Program-made: the position numbers and the translations under genes | Notes under the pieces: generated by a model | The model's input: only the letters and a program-made list of their open reading frames with translations | The model's database searches: none | Told to the model about the DNA's origin: nothing | Shown: piece after piece, positions 51,958 through 61,345 of the stretch | Numbering within the stretch: the first letter of the stretch is position 1 | Layout of the letters: each line of letters opens with the position of its first letter | Source of the DNA: a phage | Direction: 5' to 3' (one strand) | Sequence record: PZ386951.1 | Length of the DNA stretch: 64,000 nucleotides

Positions 51958-51965
51958 TATAAATA
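51958..51965 (+). promoter_or_regulatory. T4-type late promoter TATAAATA upstream of gene 34
   Basis: exact TATAAATA 35 nt upstream of ATG 52000. Confidence 0.6.
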
Positions 51966-55874: not shown

Positions 55875-56990
55875 ATGGAAAAATTTATGGCAGAGTTTGG
55901 ACAAGGATATGTCCAAACGCCATTTTTATCGGAAAGTAATTCAGTAAGATATAAAATAAGTATAGCGGGTTCTTGCCCGCTTTCTACTGCAGGACCATAC
56001 GTTAAATTTCAGGATAATCCTGTCGGAAGTCAAACATTTAGCGCAGGCCTTCATTTAAGAGTTTTTGACCCTTCCACCGGAGCATTAGTTGATAGTAAGT
56101 CATATGCTTTTTCGACTTCAAATGATACTACATCAGCTGCTTTTGTTAGTTTCATGAATTCTTTGACGAATAATCGAATTGTTGCTATGTTAACTAACGG
56201 AAAGGTTAATTTTCCTCCTGAAGTAGCATCTTGGTTAAGAACCGCCGGAACGTCTGCTTTTCCATCTGACTCTGTATTGTCAAGATTCGACGTATCATAT
56301 GCTGCTTTTTATACTTCTTCTAAAAGAGCTATCGCATTAGAGCATGTTAAACTGAGTAATAGAAAAAGCACAGATGATTATCAAACTATTTTAGATGTTG
56401 TATTTGACAGTTTAGAAGATGTTGGAGCTACCGGGTTTCCAAGAAGAACGTATGAAAGCGTTGAGCAATTTATGTCGGCAGTCGGTGGAACTAATAACGA
56501 AATTGCGCGTCTACCAACTTCAGCTGCTATAAGTAAATTATCTGATTATAATTTAATTCCTGGTGATGTTCTTTATCTTAAAGCTCAGTTATATGCTGAT
56601 GCTGATTTACTTGCTCTTGGAACTACAAATATATCTATCCGTTTTTATAATGCATCTAACGGATATATTTCTTCAACACAAGCTGAATTTACTGGACAAG
56701 CTGGTGTTTGGGAATTAAAAGAAGATTATGTAGTTGTTCCAGAAAATGCAGTAGGATTTACGATATATGCACAAAGAACTGCACAAGCTGGTCAAGGTGG
56801 AATGAGGAACTTAAGCTTTTCTGAGGTATCAAGAAATGGTAGTATTTCGAAACCCGCTGAATTTGGTGTCAATGGTATTCGAGTTAATTATGTCTGTGAA
56901 TCCGCTTCACCTCCGGATATAATGGTACTTCCTACACAAGCATCGTCTAAAACTGGTAAAGTGTTTGGGCAAGAATTTAGAGAAGTTTAA
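55875..56990 (+). CDS. 35: long tail fiber hinge connector gp35
   Basis: 371 aa; T4 gp35 position and size. Confidence 0.9.
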   Translation: MEKFMAEFGQGYVQTPFLSESNSVRYKISIAGSCPLSTAGPYVKFQDNPVGSQTFSAGLHLRVFDPSTGALVDSKSYAFSTSNDTTSAAFVSFMNSLTNNRIVAMLTNGKVNFPPEVASWLRTAGTSAFPSDSVLSRFDVSYAAFYTSSKRAIALEHVKLSNRKSTDDYQTILDVVFDSLEDVGATGFPRRTYESVEQFMSAVGGTNNEIARLPTSAAISKLSDYNLIPGDVLYLKAQLYADADLLALGTTNISIRFYNASNGYISSTQAEFTGQAGVWELKEDYVVVPENAVGFTIYAQRTAQAGQGGMRNLSFSEVSRNGSISKPAEFGVNGIRVNYVCESASPPDIMVLPTQASSKTGKVFGQEFREV

Positions 56991-57727: not shown

Positions 57728-60700
57728 ATGGCTACTTTAAAACAAATACAATTTAAAAGAAGCAAAACCGCAGGTGCACGTCCTGCTGCTTCAGTATTAG
57801 CCGAAGGTGAATTGGCTATAAACTTAAAAGATAGAACAATTTTTACTAAAGATGATTCAGGAAATATCATTGATCTAGGTATTGCTAAAGGCGGCCAGGT
57901 TGATGGTGATGTAACTATCAACGGTAAATTAACATTAAATGGCGCGTATGTTCAGACGCTGGCTGGTATTAATACCACGGGTGGTATTAATTCTGGAGCC
58001 GCTATAAGTGCAACAACTTATTATGCTCGGTCTGGTTCTTTTTATGCTCGTGCTCCAGATGCCAATGCGAATACACATGTTTGGTTTGAAAATAACAATG
58101 GTATAGAACGTGGTGTGATTTGGGCTGTTCCGAACACTTCAGACCTAGGCTCGGTACGTATTCGAGCAAAAACCGCAGGTGGTGTTTTTGCCGGCGAGTA
58201 CAGTTTCCGCTCTGATGGCCGATTTGATGTTCCTGTAGCAGTTAAAATCGGCGGAGCAGCGATGCTAACCAAAGATGGCAACATTACCTCTGGTTCTATG
58301 TTTGGCGGTAACCTTAACAACTATTTGACTTCTATTAAAAATGACATTGTTGCTGGTGATAATAAGAAAGTAAGTAAAACCGGTGACACGATGTCCGGTA
58401 ACTTGACTATTAACGCTAACTTAAAAGTCGAAAACTCTAATGGAACGTTTGTTGATTTAGGTTCAGAGAACTCTGATAAGTATAGCAGATTAACTCTTGC
58501 TCGTAAAATTGGCGATGGCGCTGGTGTAGCAATGCTTAAAGTTACTCCTGAAGGAAACGTGCAATTTGGTTATCAACCTACAGTTGCTACTCCATCTCCT
58601 ACCAAGTATATTCTAATTAAATCTAATGGTCTTGAAGTAGAAGGGGATTTAGTTTTTAAGCAAACTTATCGTGGTACTGAAGAAGCAATTGATATTACTG
58701 ATCAGACTATTGACCTTAATAGTCTGATCATTAGACACTCAGATTTAGGCACTCGTAAGCTGTATAAATGCAGATCATCTGGCGGTGGTTCTAATATATT
58801 GAACAAACCTACATCTGACGGCAACTTTACTCTTGAAGTTCTGTCTTTACGCAAGGTTTCTGATACCGATTGGTCATGTAAACAGACCTTTACTACAAAG
58901 AACAACAATGTCGTAGGCGTATATGTTCGCTACGGGCAAGGTGGCTCATGGTCTGCATGGCAAGAAGTTGTATCTGGTGTTCAACCAATTAATTTAGGTG
59001 GTACTGGAGCAACTTCTGTAGCTGCTGCCCGTAATAACCTTGGTATTGGTGCAGGCCAAACTGTAACATTCGGTAATTTAGTTACCACCGATTTAACCGT
59101 AAATGGAAATGCTAGATTAGTCGGAAGACTGAACTTTGGTTCTAATTCTCAGTCGGCTGGTGTATTACGAGCCAACGAAGGTGGGGCTGTTGTTTTAAGT
59201 TCTGCAAGTGGTGCAAACATCCACATCAGAGCGGACGGCGATACTTCTACCGGTGAAACTCGCTTTGAGCCAAATGGCAACGTTGTAGTCGGTGGTGCTA
59301 TTACAGCATCTCAGCGTATTACAGTTAATGCTGCCACCGATGCTATTGTTGTTAACGCTCCAACTCAAGCATCATCCAACTATATTCAGGGTCGTAAAGC
59401 TGGTGTCGCTAAATGGTATGTCGGCATTGGCGATGATGGTGATGCAGTACGTCTACATAACAATGTATATTACCATGGTATTGGATTGAGCGCTGATACT
59501 GTCGATATTACCAAGCCTCTTAAAATAGGAAATGTTAAACTAGGAACTGACGGTAATATCACCGGTGGTTCTGGCAATTTTTCTAACTTGAACACAACAT
59601 TAAACCGCAAAGTTAATGTTGGCGTATGGTCAGGTGTTGATAAAGTAGTAGGATGGTACTGGTACAAATTCGCTACTGTAACAATGCCACAATCTACATC
59701 TACCGCGCGTTTCAAAATTATCGGCGGGAATGGTTATAATGCTAATTCTCCTGAACAAGCATCTGTAAGTGAAATTGTTCTTAGAACTGGTAATAATAAT
59801 CCTAAATCTATTAATGCGGTGCTGTGGTCTAGCACTAGTACCAGCCCGTCAAACATTGCTACAGTGAATACATCTGGCGATAATTATGATGTATATGTAT
59901 ACATGGGCTCTTTTGCCCAATCTTTATTAGTTGAATATGATGCTACAGTGAATATTAGCGATATTTCGGTAATCGGTCTTAATGGTGCATCTCAATCACC
60001 GGTAGAAGAATTACCTGCAGACCATGTGCTTGGACACGTGTATAAGATGTATTCCGATGCTCAGATACCTTATCCTGTTGGCGCTCCTATTCCATGGCCG
60101 AGAGATTCAATTCCAGATGGATTTGCTTTAATGGAAGGCCAGACCTTTGATAAGTCTGCATATCCAAAGCTAGCTATTGCGTATCCTAGTGGTGTTATTC
60201 CTGATATGCGAGGCCAGACTATTAAGGGTAAACCGAGCGGTCGCGCAGTGTTGAGTGCTGAAGCTGATGGTATTAAGTCCCATACCCATATTGCCTCAGC
60301 ATCCACTACTGCTTTGTCTGGTACTACAAGCGCTACTGATTTAGGGACTAAAACTGTTAGTACAACAGATCTAGGCCGTAAACATACCAATCTTGCTGGT
60401 ATGCATACTCATACAGTATCCGGTACAACGAGTACTGACGGTAGGCACGCACACACTGCTTCACTTGGTAACAACGCTAACGTTCAGTCCGGTAGATTTG
60501 CAGCATCCAATTCCGGTCAGACAGCAACGACATGGACAAACGAGGATGGTCTACACTCACACACGTGGTCAGGTACTACGTCAGTAGGTCCAGAACATAG
60601 TCACTATACTGATATCGGTACACATAACCATACAGTGGCTATAGGTTCACATACTCACACGTTTTCTATTGCTGCTCATGACCATACGATTACTGTAAAT

Positions 60701-60766
60701 AGTACAGGTAATACAGAAAATACAGTTAAAAACATTGCTTTTAACTATATCGTTCGTTTAGCGTAA
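57728..60766 (+). CDS. 37: long tail fiber distal subunit gp37 (receptor recognition)
   Basis: 1012 aa; C-terminal His-x-His repeat region typical of the T4 gp37 needle tip. Confidence 0.95.
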
Positions 60767-60770
60767 GGAG

Positions 60771-60786
60771 AGGGGCTTCGGCCCCT
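60771..60786. terminator. hairpin AGGGGC-TTCG-GCCCCT downstream of gene 37
   Basis: perfect inverted repeat. Confidence 0.6.
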
Positions 60787-60793
60787 TCTAAAT

Positions 60794-61345
60794 ATGAAAA
60801 TTTATCATTATTATTTTGACACGAAAGAATTTTACAAAGAAGAAAATTACAAACCGATTAAAGGCCTTGGTCTTCCTGCTCATTCAACAAATAAAAAACC
60901 TTTAGATCCTAAAGAAGGATACGCAGTTGTATTTGATGAACGTATTCAGGATTGGATTTATGAAGAAGACCATCGTGGTAAACGAGCATGGACTTTTAAT
61001 AAAGAAGAAATTTTTATAAGTGACATTGGAAGACCGGTTGGTATAACCTTTGATAAGCCCGGCGAATTTGATATATGGACTGATGATGGCTGGAAAGAAG
61101 ACGAAACATATAAACGTGTTTTAATTCGTAATAGAAAAATTGAAGAACTATATAGAGAGTTCCAAGTTTTAAATAATATGATTGAAGCTTCTGTCGCCAA
61201 TAAAAAGGAAAAATTCTATTATAAAAACCTTAAGCGGTTCTTTGCTCTTTTAGAAAAACATGAGCATTTAGGTGGTGAATTCCCTGCATGGCCTGAAAAA
61301 GAACAGAAGCCTTGGTATAAGCGTTTATTCAAGCATTACGTATAA
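60794..61345 (+). CDS. 38: tail fiber assembly chaperone gp38 (T4 type)
   Basis: 183 aa, same length as T4 gp38. Confidence 0.88.
   Translation: MKIYHYYFDTKEFYKEENYKPIKGLGLPAHSTNKKPLDPKEGYAVVFDERIQDWIYEEDHRGKRAWTFNKEEIFISDIGRPVGITFDKPGEFDIWTDDGWKEDETYKRVLIRNRKIEELYREFQVLNNMIEASVANKKEKFYYKNLKRFFALLEKHEHLGGEFPAWPEKEQKPWYKRLFKHYV

Follow-up and report, generated by a model that had tools for sequence, protein, structure and literature searches.

The distal tail fibre of T-even phages

In phage T4 the D11 domain of gp37, the distal subunit of the long tail fibre, has a stem formed by residues 882-931 and 960-1009, with 50 amino acids in each arm, and a tip subdomain at residues 932-959 (PMC6957217). 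Seven iron atoms are coordinated along the axis of this needle by the histidines of His-x-His motifs; two of these histidines, H929 and H931, were tested by replacing them with alanine, which proved lethal (PMC6957217). In the knob at the end of the T4 needle the residues I933, N937, G938, G940, G942, G943, S947 and Y949 are needed for function (PMC6957217), and T939, V941, G943, A955 and Y953 switch between the use of LPS and of OmpC (PMC6957217, PMC5221442). The C-termini of gp37 from tequatroviruses have been described as containing 'between seven and nine' putative iron-coordinating His-x-His repeats (Korf et al. 2019, PMC6563267).

In the T2/T6/S16-type distal fibre, gp38 acts as the adhesin; it has glycine-rich motifs as well as hypervariable segments and stays on the end of gp37. 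A screen covered 73 Straboviridae, of which 17 were OmpC-specific; all of these had T4-type Gp37 D10/D11 domains with an extensively varied tip, and the 54 phages with Gp38 adhesins had Tsx, FadL, OmpA, OmpF or OmpW as their receptor (bioRxiv 10.64898/2026.04.02.716166).

Here we describe the distal tail fibre encoded in a window of 64,000 nucleotides, which is the whole stretch of phage DNA that was analysed (PZ386951.1). We consider it highly probable that its gp37 ends in a T4-type needle that is one rung longer than the needle of T4, that it is served by a T4-type chaperone gp38, and that it uses its own knob as the adhesin, with OmpC as the most likely receptor.

Gene 37 and its neighbours

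The tail-fibre genes of the window stand in the T4 order, with genes 34 (1288 aa), 35 (371 aa) and 36 (221 aa) followed by 37, 38 and t. The product of gene 36 was matched to Pfam Phage_T4_gp36 and the t holin to Pfam Phage_holin_T, and the 22-kb stretch upstream has about 96% identity to many members of Tequatrovirus, the genus of the present phage. Gene 37 (57728..60766, + strand) encodes the distal long-tail-fibre subunit of 1012 aa and was identified from the ORF list, Pfam and PHROG. Its product has the Pfam domains gp37_trimer (aa 545-613) and Collar (aa 785-832), and its PHROG matches are tail-fibre families. Gene 37 starts 8 nt and gene 38 starts 27 nt past the preceding stop codon. 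Several ORFs of 64-106 aa that overlap gene 37 on the opposite strand or in another frame (60070-60390 on the - strand, 60393-60587 on the + strand, and others) were taken to be spurious, as they lie wholly inside a well-supported gene.

Gene 38 (60794..61345, + strand) encodes a gp37 assembly chaperone of 183 aa that is of the T4 type, as the earlier note on this DNA had claimed in preference to the T2 adhesin type. It is identical to T4 gp38 at 175 of 183 positions (96%) in a gap-free alignment and matches PHROG 105 'tail fiber assembly' (E 7e-44), which together rule out an adhesin of the T2/S16 type; gp38 had no Pfam match. The present fibre has the gene position and the overall role in host recognition in common with the T2/T6/S16-type fibre. 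However, unlike in that type, the gp38 of the present phage is the T4 chaperone with 183 aa, and gp37 has a T4-type needle at its end. As the T4 chaperone folds the gp37 trimer and then leaves the fibre, the end knob of gp37 itself would be the adhesin.

Over its whole length gp37 is 35% identical to T4 gp37. The part in front of the collar has 781 aa as compared to 812 in T4 and is mostly unrelated to it, with an identity of about 0-30% per 50-column block of the full-length alignment for the shaft at aa ~100-770. The top match to the whole gene was found in the Tequatrovirus phages BCH953P2/P4 (95.8% nt), and exact look-up of the 1012-aa protein in a collection of 15 billion sequences gave no identical entry. 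This gp37 is new at the level of the exact sequence, but its kind is well known and phages with its specificity module have already been sequenced.

One section of the shaft (58076-59314, gene 37 nt 349-1587) is about 83-86% identical at the nucleotide level to distal tail-fibre genes of Klebsiella phages, including Mineola, KP179 and Merci, as compared to only about 4-22% identity per 50-column block to T4. In total 185 Klebsiella records match gene 37 anywhere along its length. Judged from such sequence matches, gene 37 is a mosaic, with an N-terminus common to T4, a shaft common to Klebsiella phages and a tip common to BCH953, TH58 and SP18.

Layout of the tip in comparison to T4

The last 238 residues of gp37 (aa 775-1012) matched the T4 tip structure 2XGF in a phmmer search (E 2.2e-79), with 2xgf_A residues 22-242 as the aligned part of the chain. 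The borders of the stem arms and of the knob were set by transferring the published limits of T4 D11 (PMC6957217) through the alignment. The N-terminal part of the Collar (D10) covers aa 780-850 (60065..60277, + strand; T4 811-881) and is placed by PF07484 (E 3e-10) and by the T4 alignment; the collar segment aa 775-851 is identical to T4 806-882 at 64 of 77 positions. It is followed on the same strand by the outgoing stem arm at aa 851-909 (60278..60454), which has 59 aa as compared to 50 in T4 (882-931). The tip subdomain, or end knob, is formed by the 27 residues aa 910-936 (60455..60535; T4 932-959) and is presumed to be the receptor-contact surface. The returning stem arm, placed like the outgoing one by the T4 alignment, covers aa 937-995 (60536..60712) and also has 59 aa, again with 50 in T4 (960-1009). 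The C-terminal strand, which re-enters the collar, covers aa 996-1012 (60713..60763) and was recognized from its identity to T4. The final 20 aa of gp37 are the same as T4 1007-1026 (20/20), and in 121 homologues these residues vary little or not at all.

Both arms differ from those of T4 in length. The outgoing arm has a 9-aa insertion after motif 1, at about aa 859-869 (nt ~60302-60334), and the spacing between motifs 1 and 2 is 41 aa here and 32 in T4. The returning arm has four consecutive 9-aa units of the form HxHxxxIxx (aa 957-992), where T4 has three; the extra unit was aligned at aa 975-983 (nt 60650-60676), a placement that is arbitrary among the repeats. The two arms are equal in length in this phage (59/59 aa) as well as in T4 (50/50). 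The end knob is one residue shorter than in T4 (27 aa as compared to 28), and between motifs 3 and 4 (aa 910-942 against T4 932-965) the two proteins agree at only 6 of 34 aligned positions.

The part from the collar to the C-terminus has 231 aa here and 214 in T4, which makes this tip 17 aa longer. The earlier note had described gp37 as slightly shorter than in T4. This is correct for the whole protein (1012 aa as compared to 1026 aa), but it is not a property of the tip: the total is lower because the shaft in front of the collar, which is largely unrelated to that of T4, is about 31 aa shorter. The note had also ascribed to differences in the distal region a probable role in host range, through recognition of OmpC or LPS, and the alignment did show such differences, as the tip is not identical to that of T4 and contains indels of +9, +9 and -1 aa. 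Altogether the present fibre resembles that of T4 in the collar, the last 20 residues, the motif pattern on both arms and the gene order 36-37-38-t, but it has eight motifs where T4 has seven and arms of 59/59 where T4 has 50/50, and the knob is essentially unrelated.

His-x-His motifs

A regular-expression scan of gp37 found exactly eight His-x-His motifs, all of them within the last 161 residues and spanning nt 60281-60685 (+ strand). Three belong to the outgoing arm, HTH at aa 852, HTH at 893 and HAH at 907 (60281-60289, 60404-60412 and 60446-60454). The other five belong to the returning arm, HSH at aa 943, HSH at 957, HNH at 966, HTH at 975 and HDH at 984 (60554-60562, 60596-60604, 60623-60631, 60650-60658 and 60677-60685). 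The earlier note had listed these motifs at 60280-60700 as 'eight or more'; the number eight and the exact order were recovered, but there are no more than eight. In T4 gp37 (NC_000866, 1026 aa) the needle has seven motifs, at residues 883, 915, 929, 966, 980, 989 and 998, and the protein also has an HYH at 742 that is unrelated to the needle. The proposal that the motifs make up a T4-like metal-binding needle agrees with our results, as the region and the T4 gp37 needle, in which His-x-His motifs bind iron (PMC6957217), are homologous. All eight motifs are kept in BCH953P2, TH58 and SP18, although the DNA of SP18 is only 77% identical.

The last motif, HDH (60677-60685, aa 984-986), has an unusual central residue. 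At this position 111 of the 122 family members have Gly, and the window is the sole case of Asp in the 122-sequence alignment. Among the phages with the same tip, BCH953P2 also has HDH, and TH58 and SP18 have HGH.

Coupling of arm length and motif number

Homologues of the tip were collected with a search of 5.8 billion proteins, and 118 of the 122 aligned sequences had the anchor motif and were scored. Six motifs were counted in 30 sequences, seven in 75 and eight in 13. Of the 77 homologues with a spacing of 32 aa between motifs 1 and 2, 76 had three C-terminal motifs spaced by 9 aa, and all 41 homologues with a spacing of 41 or 42 aa had four. The coupling of the arms was thus found in 117 of 118 homologues, and it was also found in each of 14 T-even tips taken from phage genomes.

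Growth of both arms by the same 9 aa would be a requirement of adding a rung to a hairpin-like intertwined stem. Since arm lengths and unit counts are coupled, eight axial metal sites and a longer stem are predicted. In the proposed structure three chains would run out from the collar along a thin stem, make a small end knob and run back. Each His-x-His motif would give two histidines per chain, and the three chains would together hold one iron on the axis in octahedral coordination, as in T4. The layout would be the same as in T4 with a longer stem, having nine more residues per arm and four His-x-His units on the return, and with eight metal sites instead of seven; homology suggests metal binding at all of them. 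At the typical rise of a beta-strand the stem would be extended by about 2.5-3 nm. A single-chain AlphaFold2 model of the 240-aa tip, made with the 121-sequence alignment, was poor (mean pLDDT 54.8, pTM 0.23), as expected because the tip is an intertwined trimer. The coupling rule follows from the known structure and is no discovery. It does give a simple rule for engineering chimeric fibres, namely that any unit gained or lost on one arm has to be matched on the other.

Occurrence of the long stem

The returning arm has four units in 10 of the 14 T-even tips that were compared, and nine of these ten have eight motifs. T4, GRNsp7 and G2285 have a three-unit returning arm and seven motifs. Eight motifs are not unusual: this number predominates in the set of T-even tips and has already been published. 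Four 9-residue units, eight motifs and a T4-type gp38 are present, as here, in KAW1E185, PhiZZ30, AV122, SHBML-50-1, TH57 and P896. In other long-stem T-even tips the outgoing arm has a 10-aa insertion that duplicates SSFDYGTKT and gives a spacing of 42, whereas the insertion here is TALSGTTSA and the spacing 41. The knobs of the other long-stem T-even phages are also much larger: their motifs 3 and 4 are separated by 48-56 aa, as compared to 36 here. It is in this sub-type, with its own insertion and a small knob, that the present tip is somewhat particular.

T4 host-range mutants described by Tetart et al. in 1996, in work that PMC5221442 cites, are said to have duplications in this part of gene 37. 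In the present gene, Tandem Repeats Finder found no repeat in 60000-60800, and the four 27-nt units that encode the His-x-His repeats of the returning arm agree at no more than 11-16 of 27 bases. This marks the extra unit as an old one, and not the result of recent slippage or duplication.

Relatives of the tip and probable module exchange

At the DNA level this allele matched over at least 80% of the tip in no more than six phage records out of 50,697, from BCH953P4 (two), BCH953P2, TH58 and SP18 (two). BCH953P2/P4, the Escherichia virus TH58 (Mosigvirus) and the Shigella phage SP18 (Gaprivervirus) have the same long-stem allele, with 231 aa from the collar to the end, the same type of knob and motif offsets as here (0, 41, 55, 91, 105, 114, 123 and 132). 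The tip differs from that of BCH953P2 at 3 of 231 residues. Over a 76-aa stretch around the knob the identity to BCH953P2/P4 is 100%, to TH58 97.4% and to SP18 78.9%, and among the 50,697 phage records the 27-aa knob is common only to these phages. TH58 and SP18 have only the tip in common with this gp37 and carry other shafts, with a global aa identity of 81% and 37%, respectively. The occurrence of the allele in three genera (Tequatrovirus, Mosigvirus and Gaprivervirus) shows that the tip is transferred horizontally.

More distant relatives are the side or tail fibres of E. coli and Shigella prophages (lambda Stf-like and Mu/P2-like), with 53-64% identity over the 240-aa tip. These have the same collar, motif pattern and C-terminal strand, but their N-terminal shafts are the unrelated ones of temperate phages. 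Several of these prophage fibres (P0002-P0009) carry the knob motif GDNANVRSGRVASSNS, which is related to the knob described here. In P0002, P0003 and P0006-P0009 the related knob stands on a short stem, with a 32-aa spacing and three units. The presence of related knobs on short stems and behind unrelated shafts suggests that temperate and T-even phages have exchanged knob modules.

Number of metal sites and choice of receptor

The eight-site stem was weighed against two other readings of the motifs. One is that the His-x-His cluster is a compositional accident of a low-complexity tail rich in His, Thr, Ser and Gly and has no structural meaning. The tip is indeed compositionally biased, with 17 of the 24 histidines of the protein in the last 200 aa. 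However, none of 20000 composition-preserving shuffles of these 200 aa reached eight motifs, the motif histidine columns are invariant or nearly so among the 121-122 aligned homologues, and the region aligns to the solved structure 2XGF, whose equivalent histidines bind iron. Chance or low complexity is refuted by these observations as the origin of the motifs, and we regard a cluster with no structural meaning as next to impossible. The other reading accepts the needle but takes the eighth motif and both 9-aa insertions to be bulged or disordered, which would leave seven functional sites as in T4. It could draw on the insertion TALSGTTSA, which departs from the SSFDYGTKT repeat usual in the outgoing arm of other long-stem tips, and on the unusual central Asp in the last motif. 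It is very unlikely in view of the arms, which lengthen together by the same 9 residues here and are coupled in nearly all homologues and in all of the T-even tips taken from phage genomes, a pattern to be expected only where the outgoing and the returning arm have to remain in register in the stem. The conservation of the eight motifs in BCH953P2, TH58 and SP18 also speaks against it. The stem with eight sites is retained as the preferred reading.

The knob, and not the number of motifs, should set the host range of such a fibre. By its sequence the phage resembles the OmpC-specific Straboviridae, having T4-type Gp37 D10/D11 domains and no Gp38 adhesin, and its primary receptor is probably OmpC, as indicated by correlation at the level of the family and not by conserved contacts. 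The residues needed for function in the T4 knob are mostly not conserved in the alignment, and as the surface of the knob is not conserved (6/34 positions), the specificity of T4 is not simply transferable. It is conceivable, though somewhat unlikely, that the fold is as described and the primary receptor is another outer-membrane protein or only a core sugar of LPS. The replacement of most of the critical T4 residues would agree with this. So would the next most similar knobs after those of the four T-even phages with the same allele, which are found in Felixounavirus tail fibres (about 55% identity). Felixounavirus phages are LPS-binding. A literature search found no published receptor data for BCH953P2/P4, TH58 and SP18, the phages with the same knob. 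Against another receptor stands the screen of Straboviridae, where all 17 phages with a T4-type needle were OmpC-specific despite the variation of their tips (bioRxiv 10.64898/2026.04.02.716166), and T4 itself uses both OmpC and LPS via one knob (PMC6957217, PMC5221442).

BCH953P2/P4 have the specificity module found here (aa 910-936), and host-range data from those phages should therefore carry over. It is unlikely, but conceivable, that the knob recognizes a receptor or a variant of the OmpC surface loops that is new among characterized T-even fibres, and that the 9+9 extension of the stem is required for presenting the knob past a longer layer of LPS or O-antigen. The value of the present analysis lies mainly in annotation and in host-range prediction, for a fibre of the T4 type in which gp37 itself would be the adhesin.

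Other features of the tail-fibre region

In gene 37 the G+C content is 0.45-0.46 at 59000-59500 and at 60000-60500, the second of which includes the collar and the stem. The flanking 500-nt windows have a G+C content of 0.38-0.42, the whole tail-fibre gene block 0.36-0.42 and the downstream early genes about 0.30-0.37. The rise within gene 37 would agree with an amino-acid bias (Gly, Ala, His, Thr) as well as with modules acquired by horizontal transfer.

The 27-nt spacer between genes 37 and 38 contains a GC-rich hairpin, GGGGCTTCGGCCCC (60772..60785, + strand), which was recognized by reading the sequence. The hairpin is perfect, with a UUCG-type loop and no T run after it, and in phage G2285 the annotation has a putative terminator at the corresponding place. 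Exact boxes of TATAAATA, which we take to be the T4 late-promoter consensus, were found at 51958, 57023 and 61341, just upstream of genes 34, 36 and t, and there is no such box directly before gene 37 or gene 38.

The long tail fibre hinge protein gp35 (55875-56990) has a match to the Pfam ILEI domain PF15711, 'Interleukin-like EMT inducer', at aa 58-127 (E 3.7e-9), with 37.4 bits as compared to the curated cut-off of 27.
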